58,780 bases of DNA from a virus (Duplodnaviria > Caudoviricetes), in the IMG/VR virus record IMGVR_UViG_3300016484_000424, positions 1-58,780 of that record, one strand, 5' to 3'. The notes beneath the pieces were generated by a model that was not told where the DNA came from, did no database searches, and was given only the letters and a program-made list of their open reading frames with translations. Numbering within the stretch: position 1 is the stretch's first letter; each line of letters starts with the position of its first letter. A program made the position numbers and the translations under genes. Shown here one piece after another: positions 33,601 through 50,114 of this stretch.

Positions 33601-36600
33601 ATCTTCGACATGATCAACAAGATCAAGGCGACGGTGGGCTACTCCAACAAGACCGAGAAGTACCTGAGCGACTTTGACCGGGTGATGGAGCTTGTGGGCG
33701 AAGTGCTGGCGAAGCACGACATCAAGCCCAGCAGTCTCAGGGGCATGGATGGCAAGCCGGTCTACAACCGCAAGGAAGACGAAACCCCTGTCACCTCGCA
33801 AGGCCGCCTGAAGTCCAAGGTCGGCGACATGATCAATTCCCACTTCGCTGGCACGATCAGCGGGTGGGACAAGACAGTGGGCACGCCGTACAACCTGGCG
33901 CAGCGCAGGCCTCAGTTCAAGCGGGTGTTTGATGGCCTGACGGACTTCATCAATGGGGTTTCGACCTTTGCGCATACCGCCGCTGACAAGGCGCCGACGT
34001 GGCTTCCAAGTCTGAACAGCGTCAGCGACTTCTTTGAGCGCCGCCCTGCGGACAGCAAATCATTGCTTCCATTCCGCATCAAGACCCCAGTGAAGCGCGA
34101 AGACAGCGATGCCGTGGCAAAGCCCATCTTCGAGGGCACCATCGCCTGGACCCGCGACGGCAAGGGCGAGCCCATCAAGATCGAAGAGGCCAAGGCCGCC
34201 GCCGAGAAGTTGAGCGTGGACGAGAAGGCCCGCGCGCTGCTGAAGGGCGGCCACGTCGCGCCGCGCGTGCTGAAGATGTGGCAGGGCCAGGAGCTCGACG
34301 CCTACGAGAAGATCATCGTCGGCAAGTACGAGCGCGACATGCTGGCTACCGGCATCGTCTTCACGCCCGACGAACTGAAGTCCATCTTCGGCCTGACGCC
34401 CAAGCAGATCGGGCTCTACAAGGAGTTCCACGCTGGTGTGGGCAAGAGCCTGGAGGACATGACGGTTTCGGCCATGCTGCGCGTTGGCGGCAAGGACACG
34501 GCAGACTTGCGCGAGCAGGCCCTGAAGATGTCCATGGACGATGCGGCCGAGTTGCTGCGCGACCGGATGTACGAACTGGCTGCCCAAGCATCTGGCAAGG
34601 CCAAGGAAGAGTTGGACGCCGCCGGCGACCAGATGATCGAACTGGCCGACAAGGTGAGCGCACTGAAGCGCCGCGGCTATGCCCCGCTGATGCGTTTTGG
34701 CGACCTGACCATCACGGCCTACGACAAGACCGGCGAGATGACCTACTTCGGCATGTACGAGGGCAAGGTCGAGCGCTTCACGGCCCTGCAGAAACTCAAG
34801 GCCGAGTTCCCTGAGGCAACCTTCAAGATGGGCTCAGTCTCCAAGGAAGAGTACAAGCAGTTCGCGGCCATCTCGCCCGAAACCCTTGAGCTCTTCGGCG
34901 ACATCATGGGCGACAAGCTGGGCTTCAACACCAGCGATCCGGTCTATCAGGAGTACCTGCGCAAGGCCAAGGCCAACAACTCGGGCATGAGGCGCCTGAT
35001 CCACCGCAAGGGCACGGCAGGCTACCGCGAAGAGCCGGCCCGCGTGCTGGCCTCGTTCATCTACTCCAATGCCCGGCAGACCTCGCGCAACCTGCACTCA
35101 GGCGACATCGCCCAGGCCATCGCCGACATTGACCGCGAAGAAGGTCAACTGAAGGACTACGCGATCAAGCTGGACGAGTACGTGCGCAACCCGCAGGAAG
35201 AGGCGCAAGCCATCCGTGGGCTGATGTTCGTCAACTTCATCGGCGGCTCGCTGGCCAGCGCTGCTGTCAACCTGACCCAGCCGTTTGCCGTCACCCTGCC
35301 CTACCTGCACGCCTTCGACGCCAAGGCCAGCCTCAGGATGAGCAACGCCCTGCGCGTGATGTGGTCCAAGAAGACCGGCAACACCAAACTGGACGCAGCC
35401 ATCGCAGAAGCCGAGCGCATCGGCATTCTGGATCCGCAGGAGATCCACCACCTACAGGCCCAGGCGCGCGGCGCCGAGCAACTGAAGTCTGGCAGGGGTG
35501 TGATCGGCAAGACCGCGGCCAAGGCCAGCAATTCACTTTCGCGCCTGATGGTCCTATGGGGCACGCCGTTCAGTCTGGCCGAGGCCTTCAACCGCCGCCT
35601 GACCTTCGTGTCGGCCGCGATGATCGCCATTCACAAGGGCATGGACCCAGTGGAGTTCGGCAAGAAGGCGATTGCGGAAACGCAGTTCGTGTATTCAAAG
35701 CACAACAACCCGGTATGGGCACGCGGCGCAGTCGGCGCAACCCTGTTCACCTTCAAGAAGTTCGGCGTCTCATGGATCGAAACCATGGTTCGCTTGGCCA
35801 ACTCCGGCCCGCAAGGTAAGGCCGCTGCGCTGGTCATGCTGGCCGCGCTGGTCATGCTGGCTGGTGTTGATGGCCTGCCCTTCCGCGAAGACCTTGAAGA
35901 CCTGATCGACGGCTTTGCCAACCGGGTGCTGGATCGCAACTTCCAGACGAAGGCATGGCGACACAAGCTGACCAAGCAAGTCTTCGGTGAGGGCTGGTCC
36001 AACTTCGTGAACAACGGGCTGTCGGGGCTGCCGGGATCGCCGATCGACGTGTCGGGTCGCTTGGGTATGCACAACCTGATTCCGATGACCGGCCTGATGG
36101 TAAAGAAGACGGACTACACCCGCGACGTGATGGAGATCACTGGCGCGGCCGGCGGCATCCTGAAGCAGTATGCTGAGGCAGCCGCTCTTCTTGCCGAAGG
36201 CGAAGTCTTGCGTACCGCGGCAAAGGCGTTGCCGATCGCAGGACAGAACATCCTCAAGGCGGCAGACATGGCGAACACTGGCGCCTACCGCGATGCTCGC
36301 GGGTACATCGTGACGAAGACGACGCCGGCCGAGGCCGCAGCCAAGGCGATTGGCTTCCAGCCGAAGTCGGTGGCCGATGAGCAGGAAGACAACTTCGGCC
36401 AGCAGCGCCGGATTGCCTTCGTCAAGATGGTTGAATCCGAGCTGGTCGAACGCATGGCGGCCGGCAAGTTCTTGAAGGATGAGGACATGTTCAAGGCAGC
36501 CAATGATCGCTTGGCCACATGGAACAAGGACAACCCGGACTCAGTGATCAAGATCGACGCCCGACAGATCATCGAGCGCGTGAAGAAGATGAACACGCCG

Positions 36601-36672
36601 AAGAACCAACGCATCATCCAATCCGCTCCGCGCGAAATGCGGGGCTCCGTTCAGGAGGCATTCCAGCGATGA
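27673..36672 (+). CDS. Giant polyvalent virion protein (PLxRFG family) with ParB-like, N6-MTase-like and zincin domains
   Basis: ILDGHHQW; FFPTP, VLEPSAGNG, NPPF; LFHEFAH; YAPLMRFG. Confidence 0.85.
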   Translation: MAREIELHDGTVLEFPDNTPDDVLLRVGKQETLKLNQYNTDETSRLAARANAAKADPAPVADAPDNSPAMPIVPSSTPSVYANPVQRLRRMDNQQQAAATAATPLLDRPVPGYQPSGADLEAMSNAPSVLQADARAKRPYQEAKPLTFAQEVAADVGDVARKNPLAAGVVAGFSGLGKVGVGAVRAGADLVGADGIAKSAAGASRLATDVEQQATRGLDGNAKLVADVTSSIINSAPSLAMGMMGGPALRTLFVTSAANEYNAGRDAGFNGAESAARAGIMGAAAAIGERFGFAQQIGLLKGAMKRMPSGDMAKLLGQMITNEVPGEQLTTALQFLADKAGPAALNPNATVEDYLKAAGETLKVTLGQSAVMGGGPVAINKARETLKRVDSGSGVRDIRIADAIDAAEPPKRPTELRTEHIARVDDFAATHGVPPTVVSKIKSALDGVPLAQLPQATRAIVSTLAERGIIRAPVDEQTLASLDAPAPVQSAPKDAIPAADLIDPQEPSAPPPADPQTIAGPAINRNWTAFSPESGSLGIPRDQMPQIPNRGALANFLAAKGIERQTGMVDPSELKPTQGEFSPQKITESDSSRSVIVSSDGYILDGHHQWLAHLNDGAPVSVIRFNAPIQDLLRLAHQLPSSTTAKGPTIKKAQPDAGTVDGNAGLGVDQPGAVQRSDGLQDVPRADAGAAAVPPDGRREPDGPGPGKRDDALTLDTIQPGDITRPGGAPFRTMANAMSALSRAGQDTHELARVEGGLVVRAKKQDQGAAAPVGAGSSQPSPASSAPVRVIADAGRTRAQAVQLGVVPNADGSLTPVIGGAPVLQKTGEPVTIKPDATDLQIKKAVREAGTVPEAVKFYPPAVQEEDAPPAPRIDKAKLGAMTADELASAHETARAHNKEVERIGLKKFFGAEKADELMKLPQRRRDKWMSENLTVEQDDWMQARYANEDDVQSFKTTAHSFDTESAAALGRSIAVPSRKVNDPGFFDTPDGAMVRNALRYAKAQGWDMDAVVGAMRGRAAEWAGDDAPELFGRLFKEAGVKLPSAAIPKAIEAPTTKPESAVPTGDRTQERAEHAALLEEAGITKEEINALHGTDITEALAESPAKAEDKPAARSTEAGGAEQDPGDVAGEAAAPDAAGGQEAGPDREGLTLTTHTTAKGKTLEGYIVAVSKERAAEIDPYTFRKDGGYFIRKARADELSKEELAALADAKPVEAAAKPEAAEPKAEAEPEKPKASKTAAMRAVAQRAIEAAQADQSRDRNTNTARRAAMASSAESDARKREAVGRTMLNLADAIDKGEAPLLEGITTRAHVEELDRALTAAMYESDRGLSYVEQQRQKGRAPEERDIANAKIVQPSWSNGGANKEKLREAIKGKKGVREVEKLLFGPPTAELLAAVKAMGVSKKDIDYAFGWWNIEAIARVQRLAKVGIKTNDDLRAALRQYIQFKDGPKAEDPIKALERKLIGSKVGFDFFPTPAGVAQQMVQLADIKAGDRVLEPSAGNGNIADAAKAAGAKVDVIEISSQLRELLEAKGYPVVENDFMKFEPAEKYDAVLMNPPFSNRLDAEHIRRAFGMVKPGGKVIAIAGEGVFNGSDAKAKEFRDWLDEVGAVVEKLPEKTFTDSKLLAQTSTNARLITIAAPAAQAAAPSATTDAQKAAKSEEVAAEPAKPAAQSKNSTNLFEEFIASYETPQEAGAARKALGATVTWKNGLTGALSDHILSEYSAGARVVLSASGPAFVHKDMKGWSKSNIGAYGMQFANWLSSQDDVGAKPAAQAEKALFNTKDDGYTATNEFQPDFSEPARANIRLLTRGVGGRANTVHPYVGRSVSADAPISLVAQAIGARVQWFGVRSSLDAQDKRDFGFFNGATIGDTIFLRSEGVDRPHLTVLFHEFAHYLRKTDPQAYAELVDAVSPFVKVDKYEAEFPNTAVARNVKTPDGVQEEFMGEVLSDASMSPKFWSALGKNNPSLLQKVAGFIFDMINKIKATVGYSNKTEKYLSDFDRVMELVGEVLAKHDIKPSSLRGMDGKPVYNRKEDETPVTSQGRLKSKVGDMINSHFAGTISGWDKTVGTPYNLAQRRPQFKRVFDGLTDFINGVSTFAHTAADKAPTWLPSLNSVSDFFERRPADSKSLLPFRIKTPVKREDSDAVAKPIFEGTIAWTRDGKGEPIKIEEAKAAAEKLSVDEKARALLKGGHVAPRVLKMWQGQELDAYEKIIVGKYERDMLATGIVFTPDELKSIFGLTPKQIGLYKEFHAGVGKSLEDMTVSAMLRVGGKDTADLREQALKMSMDDAAELLRDRMYELAAQASGKAKEELDAAGDQMIELADKVSALKRRGYAPLMRFGDLTITAYDKTGEMTYFGMYEGKVERFTALQKLKAEFPEATFKMGSVSKEEYKQFAAISPETLELFGDIMGDKLGFNTSDPVYQEYLRKAKANNSGMRRLIHRKGTAGYREEPARVLASFIYSNARQTSRNLHSGDIAQAIADIDREEGQLKDYAIKLDEYVRNPQEEAQAIRGLMFVNFIGGSLASAAVNLTQPFAVTLPYLHAFDAKASLRMSNALRVMWSKKTGNTKLDAAIAEAERIGILDPQEIHHLQAQARGAEQLKSGRGVIGKTAAKASNSLSRLMVLWGTPFSLAEAFNRRLTFVSAAMIAIHKGMDPVEFGKKAIAETQFVYSKHNNPVWARGAVGATLFTFKKFGVSWIETMVRLANSGPQGKAAALVMLAALVMLAGVDGLPFREDLEDLIDGFANRVLDRNFQTKAWRHKLTKQVFGEGWSNFVNNGLSGLPGSPIDVSGRLGMHNLIPMTGLMVKKTDYTRDVMEITGAAGGILKQYAEAAALLAEGEVLRTAAKALPIAGQNILKAADMANTGAYRDARGYIVTKTTPAEAAAKAIGFQPKSVADEQEDNFGQQRRIAFVKMVESELVERMAAGKFLKDEDMFKAANDRLATWNKDNPDSVIKIDARQIIERVKKMNTPKNQRIIQSAPREMRGSVQEAFQR

Positions 36673-36869: not shown

Positions 36870-37064
36870 ATGGCTTGGGTAGCAGTCAAGTCGCGCGCCA
36901 TCCGCGCCATCGACTACGACAAGGAGAGCCTTGAGCTCGAAATCATGTTCGCTCAGGGGAATTCCTACACCTACTACAACGTCCCGCCGCAGGTTGTGGC
37001 TGGCCTCTTGGGTGCGAACTCAAAAGGCCAGTTCTACAACAACTTCATCAAGGACCGGTACTGA
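36870..37064 (+). CDS. KTSC domain protein
   Basis: V.S..I.AIDYD....LEI.F..G..Y.Y..VP.....L..A.SKG.FYN..IK..Y. Confidence 0.9.
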   Translation: MAWVAVKSRAIRAIDYDKESLELEIMFAQGNSYTYYNVPPQVVAGLLGANSKGQFYNNFIKDRY

Positions 37065-37818
37065 ACAAATCCTTCGGCGTCTTCACCGAGAAGATTCCGG
37101 CCAGCTTGGTCAGCCCCTTGGGCAGGATGTGGCAGTACGGCGCGTGCACCTTCTGACCAGTCTTCTGGTCGGTGTAGCTGCATTCCTTGTACTGCAGGTT
37201 TCCGTTCTTGATGTGCGGCTGGTAGGCCACCCATCTGCCATTGAGGCGATAGACCCAGCCGTTGGCATGCAGCCAGTTGGTCAGTTCTTCTTGCTTGACG
37301 CTCAGGATCTTGCTGGCTTCTCGGAAGGTGATCGAGCCTTCTTCGGCTGAGATCAGGTCCAGCGCATCAGCCTTGGGCGCAGCGATGGCCAGGGCGGTTT
37401 CTGCCTTGTCGGCGCGCTCTGACTCGTCAGCGGCAAGGCGAAGCGCTTCGGGCAGGCTCTTGGGGATCTTGCCGTAGAAGCCCGAGGCTGCCAAGTTCAC
37501 CTGCTGCATGCAGACCATGGCGTCATAGGCCCGGATGACCTTCAGGTGGAAGGCTGCATTGATCCACATGGCGTAGGCGTAGACCAGCTCCTTGGCGACG
37601 TAGGTGCCCTGTTCGTTTGGAATCCCGCCCTTTTGGGCCGATGCGGAAATTCCCGCATCGCCAAGTTCGGCGATCAGTGCCTGGGTCTGCTTGTTACGAA
37701 GCCACTCGCCCGGCCTGTGGTTGGGATTCCCGCCGCTGGCCTTGTGCAGATCGTTCAGGCAGTACCGCCCTTCCCGGTCAATGCGGATCTCGATGTTGGC
37801 GATGATGAGTTCGCTCAT
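37048..37818 (-). CDS. ant: Antirepressor (KilA-N plus KilAC/ANT)
   Basis: GRYCLNDLHKASG, GTYVAKELVYAYAMWI..AFHLKVIR; P.SLPEALRLAAD, APKA, PKGL.KLA. Confidence 0.9.
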   Translation of the reverse strand: MSELIIANIEIRIDREGRYCLNDLHKASGGNPNHRPGEWLRNKQTQALIAELGDAGISASAQKGGIPNEQGTYVAKELVYAYAMWINAAFHLKVIRAYDAMVCMQQVNLAASGFYGKIPKSLPEALRLAADESERADKAETALAIAAPKADALDLISAEEGSITFREASKILSVKQEELTNWLHANGWVYRLNGRWVAYQPHIKNGNLQYKECSYTDQKTGQKVHAPYCHILPKGLTKLAGIFSVKTPKDLFSTGP

Positions 37819-38275: not shown

Positions 38276-38461
38276 TCACAAAAGGCGGCAGCCCTGGCGG
38301 GTTGACAGACAGGGAGCACCGCGGAGCGGAAACCTGCGAGCCTTTCGGCTCCCCGCCAGGACCACCATTGAAAGTGTCCAGGCAACAAAAAAGCCGCAGA
38401 AGAACTCGATGCGGCTTTGGCCGCGGTACTCTCGGGCTGTCAAACCCGACTGCTTTCTCAA
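38276..38461 (-). CDS. Ash/Icd-like leader ORF
   Basis: CGFF......MV..AG..K.R pattern; overlies the antisense RNA. Confidence 0.4.
   Translation of the reverse strand: MRKQSGLTAREYRGQSRIEFFCGFFVAWTLSMVVLAGSRKARRFPLRGAPCLSTRQGCRLL
38285..38368 (-). ncRNA. C4/CI-type antisense RNA
   Basis: CCTGGCGGG/CCCGCCAGG closing stem, GAGCC-GAAA-GGCTC hairpin; CCGCGGTGCTC and CTGTCAA are complementary to upstream TTGACAG..GAGTACCGCGG (38421-38446). Confidence 0.7.
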
Positions 38462-39176: not shown

Positions 39177-39384
39177 GTTCTCTCCCGTTGTTTCGGCAGG
39201 GCTTTGAACAGCGCCGCCCCACCACAAGGCGCAAAGCATTATGTGGCCTGCTAGGCCGTGTTTGCCTTCAGGGACTGGCGGGGTTGAGCTTCACGAGCAA
39301 TTCCCCGGCGCCATCACGCGCGGCATACCGGCATTAGGCTTGCTTCTGCGATTGTTGTTATCCGTCATTTTTGCTGTGTCATGG

Positions 39385-39424
39385 GTGTTAGCGGCGCAAT
39401 TTGTCGCCCTAAATCAAGTTAGGC
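39385..39424 (+). mobile_element. attI-like site heading cassette array L
   Basis: TGTTAGCGGCGCAATTTGTCGCCCTAAATCAAG/TTAGGC vs attI1 TGTTACGCAGCAGGGCAGTCGCCCTAAAACAAAG/TT (recalled); no attC hairpin here. Confidence 0.75.
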
Positions 39425-39706
39425 CCGCTCATACGCAGCACGCAAGCGGGCCAAGTGCTCTTGGTTCATGTGGCCGTCGTCGAGGATGTCGGCAACCGCG
39501 GCCAGCAGTTCGGAGCCTGTGCGCTTGTCTGGCAGCACTTCCACACCCGCCACCTCGCGGTAGTCATAGGCGCCGTTCCGGTCCAGGCCGCCACCACGAA
39601 GCACGCTCTCCAACTCCTGGCACTCAGCATCTACGGTTTCCAGGCTCTCGGTAGCCAGCCCGGTTCCGCGATCAAGCTCGCGGCGGCGTATCACAAATCG
39701 AAGCAT
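39419..39706 (-). CDS. Hypothetical protein, cassette L1
   Basis: AGGAG RBS; stop falls in the core site. Confidence 0.75.
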   Translation of the reverse strand: MLRFVIRRRELDRGTGLATESLETVDAECQELESVLRGGGLDRNGAYDYREVAGVEVLPDKRTGSELLAAVADILDDGHMNQEHLARLRAAYERA

Positions 39707-39733
39707 GTTGATCTCCTAGGTTGTTGCGTGCCG

Positions 39734-39794
39734 GCCTAACAGGGCAATAGATCAGACCGGGCCGCGCCCGGCTCGCTCATCGCCAGCGTTAGGC
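39734..39794 (+). mobile_element. attC-like site L1 (61 bp)
   Basis: GCCTAAC-agggc-AATAGATC...GCTCATC-gccagc-GTTAGGC; L boxes imperfect. Confidence 0.8.
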
Positions 39795-40168
39795 CGCAGG
39801 GCCAGCATCGCTGCGCGGTACTGTTCGGTCTGCAGACGTTTCAGCGGTTCCTCGTTGCGCTTCAGCGCGCACCAAGCCACAGCGCCCGCCCACCCCCATT
39901 GCTCAACCGCTGCGCGCACTTCCTTCGCCTCGTGCGGCTCAAGCGCGCAGGCATCGGCGCTGGCGTAGTAAAAGGTGTCGTTGCAGTTCACGGCCGCGTG
40001 CCATCCATCATCCCAATCGCATATGCCCGAGTTGTAAGTGCCGAAGAAAACGTAGTTCCGCGCAGCTAGCCAAAACAGGTGCTCGCAGTCCTCCAGCGTC
40101 AGCGGCCTAACAGGTCGCTCAAGCGGGACCGCGTCGGCGCGGCTGCGTTGGTTTGCTTCGTCACTCAT
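39752..40168 (-). CDS. Hypothetical protein, cassette L2
   Basis: AAGGAGG RBS and start lie inside attC L2; NCNDTF.YA.ADA motif; ends inside attC L1. Confidence 0.8.
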   Translation of the reverse strand: MSDEANQRSRADAVPLERPVRPLTLEDCEHLFWLAARNYVFFGTYNSGICDWDDGWHAAVNCNDTFYYASADACALEPHEAKEVRAAVEQWGWAGAVAWCALKRNEEPLKRLQTEQYRAAMLALRPNAGDERAGRGPV

Positions 40169-40206
40169 GGCTCGCGCCTCCTTGTCCGGTTAGCTTTGCG
40201 TTATGC
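40105..40206 (+). mobile_element. attC-like site L2 (102 bp)
   Basis: GCCTAAC-aggtc-GCT(C)AAGC...GGTTAGC-tttgc-GTTATGC. Confidence 0.85.
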
Positions 40207-40470
40207 ATGCTCGAAGACATGGAACACCAGAGCGCCACCATGCGTTTGGTATGTGCCGATGAATCGCCCGATGATGTCTGGCAGATCAGGCATTGGCTTG
40301 ACCGTGCCATAGGTGGAAAACGCGCGCGATTCTGTCGGCGCCGTTTCATCAACAAGCGCCCACAGTTGCGGATCGCCGCCTTGCATCTGCACGCTCAGAA
40401 CTTCGGCGCCGCGCGGCATCAGCAATTCCTGATAGTCGGTTACCTGAAGGGTCCATTTCCAAATCCTCAC
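40201..40470 (-). CDS. Conserved small phage protein, cassette L3
   Basis: IWK..L.....Q...MP.GA.VLSVQ.Q....LWALVD...FIGT.Q...G.LVFHVFE. Confidence 0.8.
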   Translation of the reverse strand: MRIWKWTLQVTDYQELLMPRGAEVLSVQMQGGDPQLWALVDETAPTESRAFSTYGTVKPMPDLPDIIGRFIGTYQTHGGALVFHVFEHA

Positions 40471-40491
40471 GGCTCACTCCTTGCCATCAAT

Positions 40492-40578
40492 GCATAACAT
40501 CTAGCTGCAACAGACGCGCTGCAGCATTTGGGTTAATCGGTGCGTCCAGCGGGCGCGCTGTTGAGCATGGCGTTAGGC
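40492..40578 (+). mobile_element. attC-like site L3 (87 bp)
   Basis: GCATAAC-atcta-GCT(G)CAAC...GTTGAGC-atggc-GTTAGGC. Confidence 0.9.
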
Positions 40579-40865
40579 GGCTCGTGGCGCGCGGGCGGCC
40601 ATGCAGCGCGCGGGCTTTCGGCGTTGTCGGCCTCCATTGCCACCATCAGCGCAATCAGGGCTTCGCGGGTTCGCATCGAACGGCCGCCGCCAGCGCCGCC
40701 AGCGCAAAACTCCACCGTGCTGGTGTGAACTTGGCTGCCCATGCCCGTGCCGGTAACGGCCAGCACTACATCGCCGTCGTCCTGCAAATGCAGGACCATC
40801 TGGTGGTCGCCTGCAGGCCCCATATCGCCGCATCGTCCTACCGTCCGTTTCTTCGGCCATTCCAT
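40533..40865 (-). CDS. Hypothetical protein, cassette L4
   Basis: VEFC..G.GGGRS..TR.AL..L..AM..DN motif; C-terminus runs into attC L3. Confidence 0.75.
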   Translation of the reverse strand: MEWPKKRTVGRCGDMGPAGDHQMVLHLQDDGDVVLAVTGTGMGSQVHTSTVEFCAGGAGGGRSMRTREALIALMVAMEADNAESPRAAWPPARHEPPNAMLNSAPAGRTD

Positions 40866-40899
40866 CGCTCTCGCCCTTTCGTGCCTTCGTTCACCAGCC

Positions 40900-40997
40900 G
40901 CATAACACGTCGCTCAACACGAGCGCCAACGGGTCACGGCCTTTGCTCCTGTCCAGTCCTTCCCGCCGCTGGCTCCGTGTTAGCTCCAACGTTAGGC
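40900..40997 (+). mobile_element. attC-like site L4 (98 bp)
   Basis: GCATAAC-acgtc-GCT(C)AACA...TGTTAGC-tccaac-GTTAGGC. Confidence 0.9.
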
Positions 40998-41348
40998 CTT
41001 ACCGGGCCGCGCACGGGCAAAAGCTCCCACGCAGCTCGTGTCGCTCTTGGCCTGCTGCCTGAGTTCGGCCGCCGTGGTCACGCGCGGCTTGCTTCGGTGC
41101 TTGGCCGCTACCGCTTCAAGTTCTCGCGGCGTCACCGGCGCATTCATGTAGCCGCCCGCGTAGTCAGCGAGCGCCATGCGCAGTATCTGGTGCGCCTCGC
41201 GCCCTTCCGCGATCCGCACAACTTCCGGGGAGCGGTTTAGCAGCGCCACGGCTTGGCACACTGCAGCGTGCAGCGCTTCGGCGGCAGCAGGCCTAACCCC
41301 TCGGTCAACGGCGACACCTGCCGGCTGGTCACTCTTGCTCATCTTCAA
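40992..41348 (-). CDS. Hypothetical protein, cassette L5
   Basis: AGGAG RBS and start lie inside attC L5; stop falls in the core. Confidence 0.7.
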   Translation of the reverse strand: MKMSKSDQPAGVAVDRGVRPAAAEALHAAVCQAVALLNRSPEVVRIAEGREAHQILRMALADYAGGYMNAPVTPRELEAVAAKHRSKPRVTTAAELRQQAKSDTSCVGAFARARPGKA

Positions 41349-41391
41349 TCTCCTGTAGCGCCGCCGTCAGCGGCTCAACTCTGCGTTAGAA
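41291..41391 (+). mobile_element. attC-like site L5 (101 bp)
   Basis: GCCTAAC-ccctc-GGTCAACG...GCTCAAC-tctgc-GTTAGAA; L boxes pair poorly (possible hybrid). Confidence 0.7.
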
Positions 41392-41853
41392 CTCACCCTC
41401 CGCCACCTGGAAGCATGGCACGCCGGCAGCGCGCCACATCTTCACCATCCGGTCGCGGTCCTCAAACACTGCCACCAGCCGCGCCTTGTCGCTGACCAGC
41501 ATGTCGTCAAGCCAGCGCTTCTTGAGCACGTCGTCTGGTGTGTAGTCGCCGGCCTTGCGCATGGTCAACATCGGGCCTTCCAACTCCCAAGACATGAAGG
41601 TCGTCTTGTCGGCCAGCCACTTGACCGTCTGCGTCCGCACCTCATCGCTGCGCCCGCTGAAAATCCAGATGTCGGCCCCCGCATGGCGCAGCCGTTCCAT
41701 CGTGTCGATAACAGGGTCGTTCGGGAGGTCGTCCGCGCACGCGGCGTAAAACGCTTTCCAATCTTGTTCGCCGCGCGGGCGCTCCACGTACTTGCGGCGG
41801 TGCTCAATCAGCGCCAGGGTGCCGTCAAGATCAAAGATGTACAGAGGTCTCAT
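41386..41853 (-). CDS. HAD-family phosphatase (PNKP 3'-phosphatase-like)
   Basis: IFDLDGTL, SGR, MR..GD..PD..LK, FEDR..V.MWR..G.PCFQVA. Confidence 0.85.
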   Translation of the reverse strand: MRPLYIFDLDGTLALIEHRRKYVERPRGEQDWKAFYAACADDLPNDPVIDTMERLRHAGADIWIFSGRSDEVRTQTVKWLADKTTFMSWELEGPMLTMRKAGDYTPDDVLKKRWLDDMLVSDKARLVAVFEDRDRMVKMWRAAGVPCFQVAEGEF

Positions 41854-42797
41854 TTCGCGCCCCTCCGCTGCCAAGCCACCCAGCCCAGCCCCAGCAGCAT
41901 CAATGCCCACTCGGCAGGCTCTGGCACTGGCGCCACCGGCACAGCCGAGTCAGGCAGTTTCACCGGCTCTGGAACTGGTGCAACCGGCGCCCCAGGCGCA
42001 GGCGACATCACTGCATCACCGATGATCGGCGTCACCTTCTTCGCATCGATCACCATCGGCGCCACGCCCGGAACCGGCGCGAACGTCAGCACTGAAGGCG
42101 TGGCAGCAAACGCCACCGGCTGCACCCACAGCGGACCCAGGAGCGGCGCGGGCAGGGTCGGCCAGTAGATCGGTACAGCAGGCGGCAAGAGAGGTCGCCA
42201 AGTGTCTTCCGGCGTGTCCAACTCTTGGTTGCCATCGGGGATCGGCTCAGGCGCAGACAGCCGCGCGAATGATTGCCTCGGCACGGCATCGGCAACCGGT
42301 CCCGGCGTCACATCAGGCACGCTCACCGGCACGGCCACTGGCAGCGGCGGGACCAGCGCGGGCGGGGCTTCTGTCGTCAGGCTGGGCGGCGGTGAGATGC
42401 GATTGCCTCGGGTGATGAGGCTTACATTCCGGCAGACACTCGGGACCGCAATCGACCACTCGCCTACCGTGTAGATGAGCGCCCGCTCGCCGGTGTCCTT
42501 GGGCGCCCACATGCTGGTGTTGACAATGCCGCACAGCTTCGAGCCGTTCCCGAAGTGCATCATTCGCAGCGGGCCATATTCCCACGTTGCAGACGCGATC
42601 CCGGCGCTGGTGATGTGCGCTGTGTCGTCGTACTGGCGTGCGCGCATCTTGGCTTTCAGCGCCTCGCGGGTGGGCTTCGGAATCTGCGTGTAGGTGTCCA
42701 CAGCCGAAGGCAGATCGCCCATGTAGGGATCTAGGCCGCGGTCGGACCAATTGCACGTTGCAGTGATTGCCGCAGCGGCGGCTAGGGTGAGGATCAT
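41850..42797 (-). CDS. MHFG-family PEP-CTERM protein
   Basis: C.W...G.DPYMG, MHFG, VPSVCRNVS; C-terminal VPEP.EWALMLLGLGWVAWQRR. Confidence 0.85.
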   Translation of the reverse strand: MILTLAAAAAITATCNWSDRGLDPYMGDLPSAVDTYTQIPKPTREALKAKMRARQYDDTAHITSAGIASATWEYGPLRMMHFGNGSKLCGIVNTSMWAPKDTGERALIYTVGEWSIAVPSVCRNVSLITRGNRISPPPSLTTEAPPALVPPLPVAVPVSVPDVTPGPVADAVPRQSFARLSAPEPIPDGNQELDTPEDTWRPLLPPAVPIYWPTLPAPLLGPLWVQPVAFAATPSVLTFAPVPGVAPMVIDAKKVTPIIGDAVMSPAPGAPVAPVPEPVKLPDSAVPVAPVPEPAEWALMLLGLGWVAWQRRGAK

Positions 42798-43177
42798 GTC
42801 GGTTCCTTCGGTTGATCTTGCGGCGCGTGCCCGTCAATCTTTGCCCGCCATTCTTCGGCCCAAAGCACCACCGGCATTGGCACGATGTCGCCATCGGGCA
42901 GCATCCCGGTTGCCTCAATAGCGCGGATGTCGGTCGCCAGATCACGCCACCGCTCGCGCTCTGCGGCCACGGCCGCGTCAAGCGCCGCTTGGTCGTACAG
43001 CGGCACCAGCCTGTCGCCGTCCAGCTCCGCAAACTCGCGCTCTTCCTGGCTGGGCTCTCCCGCACTTACTCCGCGCACAAGGTGGCGGCCGGGAATGCGC
43101 TGCACTTTTGGTTCACGAAGCCAAGCGCGCGGCCTGGATTTAGTCAACGCGAAGATTTCCGCCAAAGGGTCCATCAC
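42794..43177 (-). CDS. Hypothetical protein
   Basis: Operon-coupled; VPLYDQAALDAAVAAERER. Confidence 0.65.
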   Translation of the reverse strand: MMDPLAEIFALTKSRPRAWLREPKVQRIPGRHLVRGVSAGEPSQEEREFAELDGDRLVPLYDQAALDAAVAAERERWRDLATDIRAIEATGMLPDGDIVPMPVVLWAEEWRAKIDGHAPQDQPKEPT

Positions 43178-43192
43178 ATCACCTCGGTAGCG

Positions 43193-43435
43193 TTATGCCT
43201 TTTGCTTCTTCGGCTGCGCCAGTTCAGCGAGTGCCGCAAGTCGCCCAAGCCTGTCTGCGGCTACGGCAGCCGAGTACAGCGCGTCTGCCGCGTGCTTTTC
43301 CTGCTCATCCAGCATCACGGAGAGGACCGGCCACGCATCCCCATTTCGCGGCAGCGCGTCAATCTTTGCCCTGGCATCGTCTCGAACGCGCATGAAAAAC
43401 ACCATCTTGTCGGCAAGACTTTTGTAATCGCTCAT
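43193..43435 (-). CDS. Hypothetical protein
   Basis: TGATG coupling; stop falls in GCATAAC. Confidence 0.6.
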   Translation of the reverse strand: MSDYKSLADKMVFFMRVRDDARAKIDALPRNGDAWPVLSVMLDEQEKHAADALYSAAVAADRLGRLAALAELAQPKKQKA

Positions 43436-43647
43436 CAATGCACCCCAGAGCCGCACTCGGCGGCAAACTGTCGAATCACTTGGCGCGAGGCCTCATGGCC
43501 GATGGAGACTTCGCAGAAGCTGGCGATGTGGGAGAACAGCAACAGCCAATAGCCCGCTGGGTTCTCTTTGCTTTCCCAGTGCCCATCTGCGATGAACTGC
43601 GCCGCATTGCAAGCGGCGCGGGTGGCCGCCCTTTCTGGCGTACTCAT
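43435..43647 (-). CDS. Hypothetical protein
   Basis: Overlap-coupled ORF. Confidence 0.55.
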   Translation of the reverse strand: MSTPERAATRAACNAAQFIADGHWESKENPAGYWLLLFSHIASFCEVSIGHEASRQVIRQFAAECGSGVH

Positions 43648-44330
43648 GCCAACATCTCCTTCGGCAGCCGCGTCGGGATCTCTACCCCCTGACGGCGTGC
43701 CATGTAGTCATTGGTGATCGCGCGCTCGAAGTCTGGCTTCGCCGCAAACCTGTCAGGCACCGATGGGCCGTACTGGATCTTCAAACCTTCGGGGATCTTG
43801 GCTTCAATGCCTGCCCACTTGGGCTGTGACGTTGTGACTGTGCGCGTGGTCTTCTGCTGCGCTGCCGCTCGGTCGCGGATCGCCTGCTTGGCGGCAAGTT
43901 CCTTGGCCCGCTGTTCGCGCTTCTCGCGCCGTGCGTCGGCTCTGGCTTGGCGCTCCTTGGCTTCGCGCTCCCGCTGGGCTGCTGCGGCTGCCTTCTCGGC
44001 CTGACGCCGGTAGAAGCCATTGCGAAGCCTGCGAGCCCGCTGGTTCTGCGCTTCCGCCGCGGCCTTGACTGCCGCAACCTGCGCTGCGCGCGTCTCTGCC
44101 CAGCATGCCTGAGCGGCTTCAGCAGCGGTGCGGTCGGTGTGATAGTTGCATCCGCGCTCGCCCCGCGCGCCGACACGGAACAGTTCCTCGGCATCCATGA
44201 GCCTGTGGATAGCGGACTTCAGGCTGTTTGACGGGCATCCGAGCGCATTGAGGATCTGCGTGATCGTGCTGCCTGGGTTCGCGGCCACGAAGTCGAGAAC
44301 GGCGTTCTGCAGGGGTGTTCGCTCGGTCAT
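43644..44330 (-). CDS. Winged-HTH protein
   Basis: VLDFV..NPGST..QI..ALG.....K..I.RL; coiled coil. Confidence 0.6.
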   Translation of the reverse strand: MTERTPLQNAVLDFVAANPGSTITQILNALGCPSNSLKSAIHRLMDAEELFRVGARGERGCNYHTDRTAAEAAQACWAETRAAQVAAVKAAAEAQNQRARRLRNGFYRRQAEKAAAAAQREREAKERQARADARREKREQRAKELAAKQAIRDRAAAQQKTTRTVTTSQPKWAGIEAKIPEGLKIQYGPSVPDRFAAKPDFERAITNDYMARRQGVEIPTRLPKEMLA

Positions 44331-45007
44331 GCCGCCTCCAGTTCCGGTTGCTGGAATCGCGCCGTGCGGCCGTCCTGCGGCTTGCCGGTGGCCAGCCCGC
44401 GCATCAGCTTGGTGAAGGCGCGGCGCTGGCTCTTGATAGCGTTGTGGCGCGAGTAGAGTTCGCTCTTGGTCTTGGGCTTCGGCTTGCGCTTGTCCGCCTT
44501 GCCTGGGCCCCAGGCATAGAGTGGGAAGCCAGTGCCGCCGTTCTCGCGGAGTTCGTACTCGGCGATGTAGACCAGCCCGTGAGACTTCAGCGCGGCTATC
44601 GTCTCGCGGGCTCGGCGCGGAGAGCAGCCCACTTCCTCGGCCAGCGTTGTGCCAAGGTGCGATTCGATCATCAGGGCCTTGATCGTGTTGGCAAAGGTCA
44701 GCAACTCAATCGGCGTGCGGTTGCGTGTCTGCTTGCGACCGCCTCCTGGCCACTGAACATCATCCCCAGTGCCGAAGGCATAGATCGGCGTGCGGGCGCG
44801 GGCGTTCCCGTTCACCACATGCCACCCGACAATGTGCGTCAGGCCGGTGCGGTGGAATGCGTTGCAGATCCGCTGCGCCGTCATGCGCTCGGTCTGCATG
44901 GCAGCGGCAACCGTGTGCCAGGTGGCGCCACCGGCAACGCTGACGGCCAGCGCATGTGCGTAGCCGGTGGCAGTGAATCGCTGGCCGGGCTTGAGGATGG
45001 TCATCAC
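44327..45007 (-). CDS. Tandem HTH-like protein
   Basis: Two repeats of HTH...HI..W...P.YA.G.G.D. Confidence 0.6.
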   Translation of the reverse strand: MMTILKPGQRFTATGYAHALAVSVAGGATWHTVAAAMQTERMTAQRICNAFHRTGLTHIVGWHVVNGNARARTPIYAFGTGDDVQWPGGGRKQTRNRTPIELLTFANTIKALMIESHLGTTLAEEVGCSPRRARETIAALKSHGLVYIAEYELRENGGTGFPLYAWGPGKADKRKPKPKTKSELYSRHNAIKSQRRAFTKLMRGLATGKPQDGRTARFQQPELEAA

Positions 45008-45927
45008 GCGGCCTCCAGCAGATCGCCATCTGCACGCTTCGGTGCGCCAGCGGTCATGTCGGCCATGCGCTCGCGCTCCAGGGCCGCGTGCTCGGCAATG
45101 TCGGCCGCAGTCGGCTCGCCGTCGCCAATCAGGTCTTCCTTCTTGGCCCCAGCCAGCAGGCGCACCCGGTAGGACTCGACCAGTTCATCCAGGGCCAGGA
45201 GGTCGGCCTCCAGTTGCTCGACCTCGTCCTCGACACCTTCGTCCTTGCGGTCGATGGTGCAGACGGTCAGATCGCGGCCGATGACTTCGAGGGAGGGGAC
45301 GTAGAGCGTGGCGTGCCAAACCCTCCGGCCCGTCAACCACAGGCCCATCAGGCACTGGTCACGGATGCTGCTGAAGTCGTTGTCCAGCAGCATGGGCATG
45401 ATCTTTGATGGATCGACGAAGGCTTTGCACTCCCAGCCTGCGTCATCGCCAATGAAGCCATCGGCGCTGGCAGCAAACTTCCCATCACTCGTGCAGGCGG
45501 CGCCTACTTCCTCGATGATGCAGTCGTGTCGGAGCTCGTAGAGCATCCTGGCTTCGCTCTCAAGCCTGATGCCGCGCTTCGAGAAGAACGATCCTTTAAA
45601 GTTCTCGTCAAGCGGGTAGCAGGTGATGCGCTCAACGGCCAGCCGGAACGCGAACTTCTTTGACTCTTCGCCCCACTCGCCAACCGGCATTCCGGCCAGG
45701 GCCTTGTCGATCGCTTCGGCGCGTGGCTTTGCGCGGTAGCCAGCGGCCAGCATTGCGGACTTCTCGTCTGCGCCCGACTTGATGGCGGCGACGTATGTGG
45801 CTTGCTGCGCTGTCAGTCGTCCGACCTTGCGGGACAAGTACGCTTTGCTGGCAGTGATCCGGCCCGCACGAACGACACGCCACTCTGGCGAGCCTTGTGG
45901 GCTTGTGTCGATGAAGATGTCGGTCAT
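45004..45927 (-). CDS. YqaJ/lambda-exonuclease family protein
   Basis: QGS.EW...R.G.ITAS, RG..LE.EAR..YE, ASADG, ECK. Confidence 0.85.
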   Translation of the reverse strand: MTDIFIDTSPQGSPEWRVVRAGRITASKAYLSRKVGRLTAQQATYVAAIKSGADEKSAMLAAGYRAKPRAEAIDKALAGMPVGEWGEESKKFAFRLAVERITCYPLDENFKGSFFSKRGIRLESEARMLYELRHDCIIEEVGAACTSDGKFAASADGFIGDDAGWECKAFVDPSKIMPMLLDNDFSSIRDQCLMGLWLTGRRVWHATLYVPSLEVIGRDLTVCTIDRKDEGVEDEVEQLEADLLALDELVESYRVRLLAGAKKEDLIGDGEPTAADIAEHAALERERMADMTAGAPKRADGDLLEAA

Positions 45928-46697
45928 GCCGCAGCCCCTTCGGCCTTCTCCGCGGCCTTCGCGGCCAGGGTCTTGCGATGATCGGCGGTGGCTTCCTTGA
46001 ATGCCTCGTAGGCCTTCTTGTCCGATGCCAACTGAGCGCGCTGCCCCTTGAAGTAGGTCAGAGCCTCGTCGTCGGTGGTGGTCTTCTTCATCTCGAAGAT
46101 CAGCTCGTTCAGCAGATCATTGGCAGCAACGCCAGCGGCACCAGAAGATGCGCCATCGTCGTCCTCGTCCGTGGCCGCCATGCCCGTGATCGCCATGAAC
46201 GTGTACCGGCGAAGGTAGCTGTGCGCTGATGCGCGGGCCTGGATCGCGTTCTTGGCGCCGCCCGAGTCAGGCGGGCCGCCCATGGTCACGGTTTCGGAGT
46301 GGCCCTGCTTGTGAGCCAGCACGCAGGCGACTTCGATCCAGTCCTTCTCGTCCTTGGTCACGCGCCAGCTTGCCGACAGGCCGTGCCGCGACAGGGCCGG
46401 GGTGAGCGAATCAACCACGGCGAACAAATCAGCGTAGGACTTGCCTTTGAGTGGGCCGTCCTTCACGTCAGTGTTCTTGACGATCCGCACGCCTTCGGAC
46501 TTAAATGCTGCGAAGGCATCGTTGTAGGCCTTGCGAGCCTCGCCTGCCTCGAATCGGTCCTGCAGCGTCATCAGGCGCTCCAGCACATCCAGGCTCGCGC
46601 CCCTCTCGATGGCTGTTTGCAGCAGCAGTGCTGGGGCCATCGGCTGGACGGTTGCCACAGGCTGCTGGGTTGCTTCAATGATTTCGGTGGTTGTCAC
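45924..46697 (-). CDS. erf: ERF-family ssDNA annealing protein
   Basis: YADL..V...L..HGLS..W, L.H..GHSE, N.IQA..S..SY.RRY, DDDG. Confidence 0.9.
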   Translation of the reverse strand: MTTTEIIEATQQPVATVQPMAPALLLQTAIERGASLDVLERLMTLQDRFEAGEARKAYNDAFAAFKSEGVRIVKNTDVKDGPLKGKSYADLFAVVDSLTPALSRHGLSASWRVTKDEKDWIEVACVLAHKQGHSETVTMGGPPDSGGAKNAIQARASAHSYLRRYTFMAITGMAATDEDDDGASSGAAGVAANDLLNELIFEMKKTTTDDEALTYFKGQRAQLASDKKAYEAFKEATADHRKTLAAKAAEKAEGAAA

Positions 46698-46969
46698 ATC
46701 AATCTCCAGAACGTTGTAGAGAGCCGGTGCCTTTCGGCGCGCAATGGGAATCGGGAGGAGGAGGGAGGAGGAACCCCACTGCCCGGCTGAAAATCAAATG
46801 CAGGCCCGCGGGCAGATCGGCTGCTTCGCGGGTCGCTCCAAGTCTTCGCCGCCCCCGCATCCGACGAAGGGCGCGAGAAGGAGGCACAGGGTGATCAAGG
46901 CCAAGTAGCGCGGCCAGCGCGGAGACTTCGGCTGCGGCGGGCGGTGCGATGGGAGGGGAGGTAGAGGCT

Positions 46970-48716: not shown

Positions 48717-48760
48717 TGCTTACTCCCGGTTGTGCAGCGCTTGGTGGCTGCGATGGGAGT

Positions 48761-48790
48761 AACTCTAGCGCGACGCTAGGCTAGCGTCAA
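48761..48790 (-). promoter_or_regulatory. PL promoter with operator
   Basis: TTGACG-N17-TAGAGT containing CTAGCGTCGCGCTAGA. Confidence 0.75.
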
Positions 48791-50106: not shown

Positions 50107-50114
50107 CATCAAGC

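Follow-up and report, generated by a model that had tools for sequence, protein, structure and literature searches.

The two attC arrays of this lambdoid-type phage record carry their cassettes in reverse: in both arrays every gene is encoded opposite to the attC top strand, and the mobile unit, followed in the gene-sense direction, is an attC and then its gene. The arrays occupy positions 39418-41391 and positions 58092-58780 plus 1-1429 of the window (the whole 58,780-nt stretch analyzed here), and the element that hosts both of them is a temperate phage. The record is 89% complete, its break falling within the right array. We consider it very probable that these are genuine integron attC cassettes, arranged as two CALINs of a temperate phage, with their coding polarity reversed; this reading builds on what is observed of site anatomy, gene polarity and unit boundaries here, and of the same polarity across other phage contigs.

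Each array holds five full attC sites (L2-L6 and R1-R5, ten in all), and the left array also includes a lone core, G/TTAGGC, at 39418 (Table 1; slashes mark the cut). Both arrays contain at least two attC on one strand within 4 kb with no intI nearby, which is how the text of Cury 2016 (PMC4889954) defines a CALIN. The ten sites are probably those of the initial annotation, whose weakest sites, L1 and L5, would be L2 and L6 in our numbering. AAC...GTT boxes are present in all ten full sites and are complementary at 5-7 of their 7 positions, the core boxes (RYYYAAC ... GTTRRRY) departing from consensus at up to three positions (R1, R5 and the R' box of L6). The general pattern is an xxxxAAC box, 5 nt, an 8-nt box that includes an extra base, then six pairs and a second extra base, the unpaired spacers measuring 5-6 nt. 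As set out in the text of Nivina 2016 (PMC5027507), the extra bases of an attC top strand sit in the same arm as the AAC with a 6-bp spacing. Arm-against-arm alignment of the sites, complemented by inspection by eye, revealed two extra bases 6 bp apart in the AAC-bearing arm of 9 of the 10 full sites, on the + strand in L2, L3, L4 and L5 and on the - strand in R1 to R5; by the rule of that text, the attC top strand is thus + in the left array and - in the right one. L2 has an additional single bulge on the opposite arm, and the second extra base of L3 is a G instead of an A. The arms of L6 could not be aligned to each other, and this site showed neither the extra-base pattern nor an attC fold, so that the earlier claim of one pattern at all ten sites stands for nine of them and fails for L6. 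L6, not attC-like in its fold, and position 39418, only a core, count against reading these arrays as integron cassettes.

A covariance model (CM) of 19 short bacterial attCs in top-strand orientation, independent of the phage sites, picked the same strands as the extra bases at R1, R4, L2, R2 and R5 (Table 1), and the top-strand assignments of the initial annotation (+ on the left, - on the right) are therefore backed by both approaches. The long-looped L3, L5, L6 and R3 lie outside the full-length reach of this short-attC model, and were assessed by arm alignment instead; CM matches to L3 and R3 were fragmentary and weak (7.5-7.8 bits). R5 first turned up in the covariance-model search. Rfam holds no attC family, and its sole match in the window was C4 antisense RNA. 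Similar sites were found elsewhere: 55 nt of R1 are 100% identical to sites in two other contigs (L059 and L099), R4 is ~82% identical to sites in Pelomonas contigs, and the L3 attC type is also present in contigs L002, L008 and L074. A small hairpin lies at ~39385-39410, directly upstream of the 39418 core.

Table 1. Sites, genes and cassettes of the two arrays (positions in the window; CM, covariance model).
Feature	Positions	Strand	Remarks
Lone core G/TTAGGC	39418-39424	+	No R'' partner; transcription-distal end of left array
attC L2 (61 nt)	39734-39794	top strand +	Part of cassette c1; CM 27.2 bits on + vs. 9.8 on -; arm alignment
attC L3 (102 nt)	40105-40206	top strand +	Arm alignment
attC L4 (87 nt)	40492-40578	top strand +	Arm alignment; CM partial, weak, 7.4 bits on +
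attC L5 (98 nt)	40900-40997	top strand +	Arm alignment; moves together with c4
attC L6 (101 nt), degenerate	41291-41391	+	One arm resembles L015-type attC, other unpaired; R' = GTTAGAA
attC R1 (58 nt)	58092-58149	top strand -	CM 59.0 bits on - vs. 13.1 on +; arm alignment
attC R2 (88 nt)	58617-58704	top strand -	CM 21.5 bits on - (partial); arm alignment
attC R3 (93 nt)	13-105	top strand -	Arm alignment
attC R4 (57 nt)	440-496	top strand -	CM 52.6 bits on - vs. 6.1 on +; arm alignment
attC R5 (53 nt)	1377-1429	top strand -	CM 17.3 bits, E 0.002 in 2.2 kb; arm alignment
c1 (95 aa, no family)	39419-39706	-	Cassette c1 = 39419-39788
c2 (138 aa)	39752-40168	-	17 homologues; cassette c2 = 39789-40200
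c3 (DUF7352, phrog_3848)	40201-40470	-	Family matches; cassette c3 = 40201-40572
c4 (110 aa)	40533-40865	-	GC by codon position; 28 homologues; cassette c4 = 40573-40991
c5 (116 aa from ATG at 41342)	40992-41342	-	Cassette c5 = 40992-41385
Polynucleotide-kinase-type (PNK) phosphatase, backbone gene	41386-41910	-	Family match; stop = TTA of L6 core
Rc (148 aa, phrog_13384)	58176-58622	+	Stop = TAA of R2 core; cassette = 58098-58622
ORF running off record end	from 58730		Right array, after R2
Ra (DUF4406, nucleoside 2-deoxyribosyltransferase-like)	143-445	+	Stop = TAA of R4 core; cassette = 19-445
Two-gene cassette 446-1382	519-1375	+	PAPS-reductase-like 519-1274; 34-aa ORF 1271-1375
81-aa ORF after R5	1487-1732	+

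The strands of the called genes, likewise asserted beforehand to oppose the attC top strand, are backed by family matches for c3, the PNK phosphatase and the DUF4406, PAPS-reductase-like and phrog_13384 genes, and by homologues for c2 and c4. The coding strand of c1 is ambiguous from base composition alone; over its last 29 aa it shares 72% identity with an ORF on the minus strand of another contig (L043). In the record's own annotation c4 is 96 aa long. Several genes end exactly on a core, the TTA of the L3, L5 and 39418 cores providing the stop codons of c3, c5 and c1 (read on -), respectively, and others begin within a site: the bottom strand of the L3 loop carries AAGGAGG and the ATG of c2, which thus starts inside an attC, and AGGAG and the ATG of c5 both lie within L6. 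c2 and c4 run past the L2 and L4 crossovers by 37 and 40 nt, respectively.

The extent of the mobile unit can be read from blocks shared with other contigs. Positions 40549-40999 are 98.2% identical over 451 nt (blastn) to another phage contig, L265; from ..AGGCCTAA/C to ..GCCGCCTAA/C the two differ at 3 positions, and their flanks are unrelated on both sides. Both ends of this shared block (~430 nt, ~99% identity) fall at AA/C of the gene-sense strand, and it takes in the whole upstream attC, L5, and leaves out the downstream L4. The same was seen in X1, a freshwater metagenome run examined as assembled contigs, which may be the source sample: positions 40570-40999 form a separate 430-nt unitig at a depth of 24.4, its neighbors standing at 14.9 and 13.7, and other contigs join at 40556/40570 and exit after 40999 into the sequence that flanks the block in L265. 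c4 has a second context in X1 besides that of the window, and the 3 differences in ~430 bases between its copies in the window and in L265, two different contexts, suggest that it moved recently. The X1 assembly graph branches at L4, L5 and R2 (within R2 at 58638). In the right array, similarity to contig L008 is absent ahead of R1, begins at its TAAC and extends over the attC and leader into ~55 codons of the gene that follows. Protein tails point to the same boundary: close homologues share ..(R/L)PN in c2 and ..PPN in c4, beyond which their C-terminal tails diverge, the divergence point being the codon that spans the cut. An N-terminal ..ERPVRP, translated through L'' and R'', is common to close homologues. 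Since the ends of c4 lie at AA/C of the gene-sense strand, the mobile unit is an attC followed by a gene, with ends at AA/C. The shared-block ends and protein tails suggest recombination by an integron integrase at G/TT (AA/C on the bottom strand).

These boundaries bear directly on the canonical layout, in which the gene-sense strand would be the attC top strand, each attC would go with the gene that precedes it, and the extra-base call would be wrong. The 3' ends of c2 and c4, which cross the crossover and finish inside the following attC as in many ordinary cassettes, would by themselves be compatible with such a layout, and the xxxTAAC box holds stop codons under both readings. However, the bacterial-attC CM scores far higher on the opposite strand at R1, R4 and L2 (Table 1), the block shared with L265 (and again in X1) has the whole of L5 and none of L4, the L008 similarity ties R1 to its downstream gene, the tails encoded in the downstream attC vary between close homologues, and the starts of c2 and c5 would fall outside their own cassettes. 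An ORF on the top strand with a 3' attC is thus contradicted by CM, arms, L265, X1 and L008 alike, and we regard it as scarcely tenable. The proposal that each attC sits at the 5' end of its gene is upheld by the L265, X1 and L008 block ends, and by the starts and ribosome-binding sites of c2 and c5 inside L3 and L6.

Two arrays of one genome represent only two independent cases, and the excess over chance comes from a survey of other contigs, comparing ORF and attC orientation as the initial annotation had proposed. On the viral side, 150 of 179 candidate ORFs beside 55 site clusters were submitted to PHROGs (E-value ≤ 1e-5); on the bacterial side, 130 ORFs beside 42 clusters were compared to Pfam, with an aadA cassette as positive control, the aadA-type attC falling in the same pattern family as the phage sites. 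Among viral flanking ORFs with a PHROGs match (n = 23), 22 lay opposite the top strand of their attC and 1 shared it, and among bacterial flanking ORFs with a Pfam match (n = 18), 17 shared it and 1 lay opposite (Fisher p = 2e-9), for one attC sequence family defined by a 15-base pattern, with a crude ORF choice, different libraries on the two sides (PHROGs for viral, Pfam for bacterial ORFs) and viral contigs that may be related phages. Among long attCs, 10 of 21 viral vs. 2 of 48 bacterial sites contained a Shine-Dalgarno motif plus a start codon on their bottom strand. Stop codons in the core were set aside as a polarity test, being a weak discriminator only: top-strand ORFs ended at the R'' TAA in 18/61 viral and 39/107 bacterial cases, and bottom-strand ORFs at the R' TAA in 23/50 and 10/96. 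Reversed polarity is thus the majority state in viral contigs, yet the suggested "phage-specific class" holds as a tendency only, because one viral contig (G020) carries a canonical phage-borne integron; in phages, reversal is a strong tendency and not a law.

These arrays share several traits with known systems. Their anatomy is that of classical cassettes, be they of class 1 mobile or sedentary chromosomal integrons (R''/L''/L'/R', extra bases 6 bp apart, a crossover box), with attC lengths of 53-102 nt. In bacteria, however, the gene is on the top strand with its attC 3' and is expressed from Pc at the attI end (an orientation seen for 17 of 18 informative ORFs in our control), whereas in this phage the bottom strand carries the gene and the attC precedes it, at the 5' end. 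The closest parallel in phages are the 17 CALINs reported from 10,705 phage genomes in the text of Qi et al. 2023 (PMC9892861), where IntI1 recombined 5 of 6 phage attCs tested. These likewise combine attC arrays and small ORFs without a nearby intI; the abstract and main-text passages of that paper call two arrays "most typical" of bacterial arrays and are silent on gene vs. attC strand and on starts within attC. What differs here from these CALINs, as that text presents them, is the demonstrated reversal, which is the common state in IMG/VR contigs. More broadly, the text passages of the literature consulted, including PMC9892861, PMC5027507, PMC4889954, PMC13108822, PMC9668308, 10.1101/2022.09.11.507474 and 10.64898/2026.03.17.712381, describe neither systematically reversed phage cassettes nor start codons within attC. 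Spirochaetota "reverse-orientation" integrons (PMC9668308, main text) also have a non-standard relative orientation of their parts, but there intI is flipped relative to attI and cassettes. In G010, a related provirus, the intI-attC relation is standard and the cargo genes are what is flipped: it combines intI, an attI-like G/TTAGGC junction and no fewer than 5 attCs whose top strand is +, and all its ORFs are on -. The full-length IntI beside such related reversed arrays scores 390 bits (cut-off, 265).

No integrase of any kind was detected in the record itself: TIGR02249 and PF00589 gave no match, and tblastn with two phage IntI proteins returned nothing below E 0.15 in the record and no IntI remnant left of 39418. 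Nor was an attI found in the record, which therefore lacks the intI and attI beside an array that make a complete integron. To the left of 39418, the search for an attI remnant yielded just three collinear stretches of 7-9 nt matching the intI-cassette junction region of G010, which are not significant and were rejected. The notion that cassettes are read towards attI is literally true in provirus G010, but the end of the array in the record has only the lone G/TTAGGC junction.

With Erf and an exonuclease encoded by the phage (family matches) and no integrase in the record, the polarity could be as described and the sites serve as short linkers for homologous or single-strand-annealing recombination by Erf/exonuclease rather than as integrase substrates. 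Mosaic joints lying within conserved boxes of 7-9 nt would suit such linkers, as would a joint away from a core site in c5, whose last 31 aa are 100% identical to the cassette ORF adjoining intI in G010, the two ORFs having only these last 31 codons in common. However, every joint seen at a site falls in the R' box (at either end of c4, at the left-hand edge of the R1 block, and in the tails of c2 and of c4) and none in R'', which is just as well conserved. In 9 of 10 sites the extra bases retain the placement and spacing that an integrase needs in order to bind, and related reversed arrays adjoin a full-length IntI. Annealing at linkers is thus quite unlikely in our view. Alternatively, the cassettes could be real and reversed but immobile relics, their attCs now acting only as leaders and translation starts, as might be suggested by the missing integrase, the degenerate L6, the bare core at 39418 and two ORFs grown across the crossover. 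This we judge very unlikely, given the recent move of c4, the branching of one sample's assembly graph at three sites, boxes and extra bases that are intact at most sites, and a record that is incomplete and broken within the right array.

Each array lies at the far end of one of two divergent gene blocks. Gaps from stop through attC to the next start are short, and all genes are co-directional with the surrounding operon. A simple sigma-70 consensus scan of 39200-41950 found 0 promoter-like sites (0.3 expected), a simple scan of the same interval found no intrinsic terminators, and family searches matched no cassette gene to a toxin-antitoxin (TA) family. Many promoter-bearing TA cassettes of chromosomal integrons are themselves reversed. 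Cassettes with their own promoters do occur in such integrons, as the text of PMC13108822 describes for TA cassettes, and the phage cassettes could in principle be self-expressed in the same way, independently of Pc, rather than by operon read-through. In chromosomal integrons, however, such TA cassettes form a minority and bring along their own promoters and TA genes, whereas here all cassettes are reversed, with no promoter-like site or TA match by these scans, and with short gaps and genes aligned along the operon; self-expression is highly improbable on these grounds.

We thus favor reversed integron cassettes. The gene lies on the attC bottom strand, i.e., the strand folded and cut by integron integrases. 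In the sense direction, a unit starts just past the AA/C cut and runs through the attC and a ribosome-binding site into the ORF, usually closing with a TAA that is the complement of the next G/TTA core. Because the unit has this makeup, each cassette brings its own 5' leader (at L3 and L6 even the Shine-Dalgarno and start) and often its own stop, and ORFs missing the TAA extend about a dozen codons into the neighboring attC, acquiring a context-dependent tail. Cassettes without a promoter would be expressed by read-through from the two divergent phage gene blocks, with an integron integrase probably supplied in trans by the host, a co-resident element or possibly the missing 11% of the record. 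An array may have started with an insertion at a GTT closing a backbone gene; since the stop of the PNK phosphatase is the TTA of the L6 core, the left array was probably seeded at the GTT ending that gene, in line with the GWT target rule for insertion (text of bioRxiv 10.1101/2022.09.11.507474). In a bacterial integron, reversed cassettes would face Pc and be silent, which would leave a largely separate phage pool. A possible benefit arises from genes that are co-directional with transcription and replication and reversed in polarity: the recombinogenic strand would then be the non-template and lagging-template strand, which may favor folding.

It is tempting to extend this to a mirror-image integron economy in phages, although we would put its chances at no better than even. 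A large pool of bottom-strand cassettes would exist in which the attC acts as a 5' leader and often provides a ribosome-binding site, a start codon and a short peptide at the N-terminus. Exchange between phages would be carried out by integron integrases, some of them encoded by phages, downstream of the cassettes and in the same direction, as in G010. The phage and bacterial pools would share machinery and be insulated in expression, as cassettes would face Pc, and exposure of the recombinogenic strand on the non-template/lagging-template strand of phage operons could speed up exchange enough for it to count during a single infection cycle.

In integrons, the strand choice of the integrase orients promoterless genes correctly behind Pc. 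Here the sites and the cut point are the same but the cargo is turned round, as is usual in phage contigs. If the proposed reading is true, pipelines that expect an ORF and then an attC mis-assign the genes of phage cassettes, and accessory regions of temperate phages (the replication-packaging interval, the end of the recombination operon) would be partly built by integron-type exchange, which would give part of phage mosaicism a concrete mechanism. Likewise, expression polarity would filter gene flow between phage and bacterial cassette pools, an attC could double as a translation-initiation region (a sequence constraint not considered so far), and whether strand exposure in transcription or replication sets cassette polarity becomes testable.

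Finally, a near-identity search of GenBank phages with 41400-58780 gave no match and hence no annotated close relative, and in a distant-mode search with the left array the matches (16 records) were confined to the PNK-phosphatase gene, 4% of the query. The exact 40-base pattern 58741-58780 had 0 matches in metagenome contigs, and among sequencing runs one, a freshwater metagenome, carries this phage, with no RNA run listed. In the PNK-phosphatase relatives L001-L005, there is no array downstream of the gene and thus no "empty site" to compare; in L002, attCs lie upstream of the PNK phosphatase instead.

The 58,780-bp record, a virus contig from IMG/VR classed as 'linear', carries two gene blocks that diverge from a point near 48.7-48.9 kb. 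Each block has an attC array at its distal end: the left array closes the leftward block, and the right array closes the rightward one, directly before the packaging genes, where it is split by the record ends. The record starts and finishes within the right array (58705-58780 and 1-12), and an ORF from 58730 runs off its end. Where a backbone phosphatase gene stops, the left array terminates in the hybrid core GTTAGAA; a preprint describes cassette insertion by IntI1 at 5'-GWT-3' genomic sites (bioRxiv 10.1101/2022.09.11.507474), and the hybrid core fits a left array seeded at a GTT.

Gene blocks, attC sites and cassettes of the phage record
Feature	Position	Strand	Array	Remarks
Terminase, portal, structural genes	about 2.8-36.7 kb	+		
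Leftward block		-		KilA-N/Ant gene, C4 antisense RNA, polynucleotide-kinase-type phosphatase, exonuclease, Erf
Rightward block		+		ParB-like, HNH, helicase, primase, Holliday-junction-resolvase genes
Lone core G|TTAGGC	39418	+	left	
L2 attC	39734-39794	top strand +	left	extra bases in AAC arm; one further bulge in other arm
L3 attC	40105-40206	top strand +	left	second extra base is G
L4 attC	40492-40578	top strand +	left	extra-base pattern in AAC arm
L5 attC	40900-40997	top strand +	left	extra-base pattern in AAC arm
L6 attC	41291-41391	read on +, as rest of array	left	arms do not align at all
R1 attC	58092-58149	top strand -	right	arm alignment; covariance model
R2 attC	58617-58704	top strand -	right	arm alignment; model (partial)
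R3 attC	13-105	top strand -	right	arm alignment
R4 attC	440-496	top strand -	right	arm alignment; covariance model
R5 attC	1377-1429	top strand -	right	arm alignment; covariance model, 17.3 bits
Cassette c1	39419-39788		left	
Cassette c2	39789-40200		left	
Cassette c3	40201-40572		left	
Cassette c4	40573-40991		left	
Cassette c5	40992-41385		left	
Cassette Rc	58098-58622		right	
Cassette cut by record ends	58623 to ... to 18		right	
Cassette Ra	19-445		right	
Cassette with PAPS-reductase-like gene	446-1382		right	also a 34-aa ORF
Cassette headed by R5	from 1383		right	

Nivina et al. 2016 (PMC5027507) give a strand-discriminating rule for attC sites: the top strand is the one whose AAC-bearing arm contains the extra bases, spaced 6 bp apart. 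When each 5' arm was aligned to the reverse complement of its own 3' arm, a box, one extra base, six pairs and a second extra base were found in the AAC arm on the + strand for L2-L5 and on the - strand for R1-R5, so that the strand pattern initially annotated at all 10 sites stands at nine of the 10 full ones, the exception being L6. A covariance model of 19 aligned short bacterial attCs (aadA-type included, sites found with the top-strand pattern) scored R1 at 59.0 bits on the - strand vs. 13.1 on the +, R4 at 52.6 (-) vs. 6.1 (+) and L2 at 27.2 (+) vs. 9.8 (-). R2 reached 21.5 bits (-, partial), its other strand having no comparable match, R5 scored on the - strand with no full-length match on the other, and L4 gave 7.4 bits (+, partial) with none listed for the other strand; the long-looped L3, L5, L6 and R3 fell outside full-length scoring. 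The gene-sense 5' arm and loop of L6 match an attC type from another viral locus (L015), the remaining arm is R3-like and the two arms are unpaired, and it looks like a chimeric site. Contigs of Pelomonas sp. KK5 and related Burkholderiales (L127, L158, L181, L195, L197) carry attCs about 81-84% identical to R4, with flanking ORFs assigned to the top strand; the likeness hints at Burkholderiales as the host group, and suggests attC types common to phage and host. R5 is followed by an 81-aa ORF (1487-1732, +), then by a TCCTAAC at about 1807-1814, a candidate for the bare junction ending the array, and by a strong GC hairpin and T-rich sequence (about 1868-1900) that looks like a terminator before the late genes.

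The cassette genes are real and coded on the strand opposite the attC top strand. Family matches identify c3 (DUF7352, phrog_3848), a PNK phosphatase gene after L6, Ra (DUF4406) and a PAPS-reductase-like gene after R4; Rc matches phrog_13384, c2 and c4 have 17 and 28 homologues (E <= 1e-3), and other viral loci partially match c1 and c5. When GC was split by codon position, the 110-aa frame of c4 (40533-40865) was favoured over a 95-aa frame stopping in the core. The complement of the core TTA is the stop of the gene ending there at 6 of 11 sites (c1, c3, c5, PNK phosphatase, Rc and Ra).

ORF ends are not decisive for attC ownership, as two ORFs cross a crossover under either reading: c2 and c4 extend 37-40 nt into the next attC at their 3' ends, and L3 and L6 contain the respective starts of c2 and c5, along with good Shine-Dalgarno sequences. 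At the sequence level, ownership is instead decided by natural variants. A c4 protein 95% identical to that of the window is encoded on the viral contig L265, which matches window positions 40549-40999 at 98.2% over 451 nt of DNA, with 3 mismatches from ..AGGCCTAA|C through all of L5 and the c4 ORF to ..GCCGCCTAA|C, and unrelated flanks on both sides. The shared block therefore includes the gene's upstream attC and stops at the start of the downstream one, both ends falling at AA|C of the gene-sense strand. In contigs of X1, a freshwater metagenome that is possibly the source sample, 40570-40999 forms a separate 430-nt unitig (depth 24.4, neighbours 14.9 and 13.7), which other contigs join at 40556/40570 and leave after 40999 into the L265 flank sequence. 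X1 contigs also branch within R2, at 58638, and a low-depth contig (3.4) jumps from 40703 back to 39107 through 20 intervening bases of other sequence, and may originate in another genome of the sample.

Similarity to the locus L008 begins at the R1 TAAC, extends across the attC and leader into Rc for about 55 codons, and is absent left of R1. Among proteins, close c2 homologues share ..(R/L)PN followed by four different tails in five proteins, and c4 and its 88% identical homologue P0020 share ..PPN and diverge beyond; the ..PN codons are the core in frame, cut inside the N codon, and the N-terminal ..ERPVRP common to several c2 homologues is L'', spacer and R'' in frame. The L265 block, the X1 unitig, the L008 similarity and the c2 and c4 tails agree with the initial annotation in placing each attC at the 5' end of its own gene. 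The joints found are all located at R' boxes, never at R'', which argues for site-specific rather than homology-driven exchange.

To survey orientation, IMG/VR was scanned with a strand-specific pattern (TAAC, 5 nt, 8-nt L'' with extra base, CGAC with second extra base), which returned 101 stretches and 93 distinct matches, 61 of them with matching L' and R' arms. By crude ORF-strand calls, left flanks were same-strand in 14 cases, opposite in 37 and ambiguous in 7, and right flanks in 8, 38 and 9. The same pattern hit at least 142 stretches in bacterial genome contigs (112 of the 164 distinct matches listed are full sites), with 68 same, 15 opposite and 18 ambiguous left flanks, and 38 same and 25 opposite right flanks, among the matches listed and by the same crude calls. 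For a homology test, the best ORF per strand per flank was taken from 55 viral site clusters (179 ORFs), and the first 150, comprising 72 on the same and 78 on the opposite strand, were compared to PHROGs: 23 matched at E <= 1e-5, 22 opposite and one same. From bacteria, 130 ORFs (75 same, 55 opposite) of the 42 clusters with 2-kb flanks, among 82 listed, were compared to Pfam, and 18 matched, 17 same and one opposite among the matches listed, with an aadA gene and its classical attC as internal positive control. The reversed polarity first annotated here thus extends to other phages (Fisher's exact p = 2e-9, among the matches listed), within one attC sequence family, from few informative ORFs on possibly related viral contigs, and with PHROGs for one set vs. 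Pfam for the other. The covariance model also detects reversed arrays in the loci L006, L008, L002 and L265. In the viral contigs L015, L035, L054, L036 and L039, reversed attCs are repeatedly flanked by genes for DNA methyltransferases and PAPS-reductase-like proteins, the former resembling the methyltransferase cassettes described by Qi 2023.

The window record had no match to TIGR02249 or PF00589, and tblastn of two phage IntI proteins against it returned nothing below E 0.15. Because the record is an estimated 89% complete, ends inside the right array and lacks any tyrosine recombinase, further cassettes or an integrase could lie in the missing part. Of the records underlying 45 viral loci, two carry an IntI over the curated cut-off: G020, a complete phage with terminal repeats and a canonical integron (ORFs on the top strand), and G010, classed as a provirus, with intI (-), a G|TTAGGC junction and at least 5 attCs with top strand +. 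The complete integron of the G010 provirus (L263, G010:C1:1-9000) has all its cassette ORFs on the - strand, running towards intI and co-directional with it, which would make intI the last gene of a cassette operon, an architecture unlike that of either standard integrons or the flipped-intI type. Transcription towards attI, as initially proposed, is thus a layout realised in this relative, the window itself having the bare junction only. The last 31 residues of the second G010 cassette ORF (L021 1492-1584) are 100% identical to those of c5 (40992-41087; 92.6% in DNA) and the upstream sequence differs, a mosaic joint within the cassette gene and away from core sites.

The 100-nt attC types of L3 and L6 recur in other viral contigs at about 80% identity. 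Shine-Dalgarno-preceded starts of ORFs that exit the site and span at least 50 aa were counted in long attCs (80-170 nt): 10 of 21 viral sites had one on the bottom strand and none on the top, vs. 2 and 1 of 48 bacterial sites among the matches listed.

The cassette unit is an attC followed by its gene, in reversed polarity, and at least one such cassette has moved recently. Expression would come from transcription reading into the arrays out of the two divergent phage blocks (a sequence scan of the left array found no promoter-like or terminator-like site), and movement from an integron integrase acting in trans. Since LexA controls intI, the integrase gene would be induced at the same time as the prophage. 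By geometry, reversed cassettes would be silent inside a bacterial integron. Folding and excision are favoured with the bottom strand on the lagging-strand template, according to PMC13108822; for genes that run in the direction of both replication and transcription, reversed polarity alone places the bottom strand there, and strand exposure is a possible advantage of that polarity. Integrons and CALINs (attC clusters without integrase) in phages are already published (Qi 2023), and neither systematic cassette reversal in phages nor start codons within attC were found in the papers searched.

Just past the left array, a C4 antisense RNA (38281-38372, -, 60.6 bits) adjoins the KilA-N/Ant antirepressor gene (37048-37818, -) in an immI-like module, and the structural block ends in a single 2,999-aa ORF (27673-36672, +).
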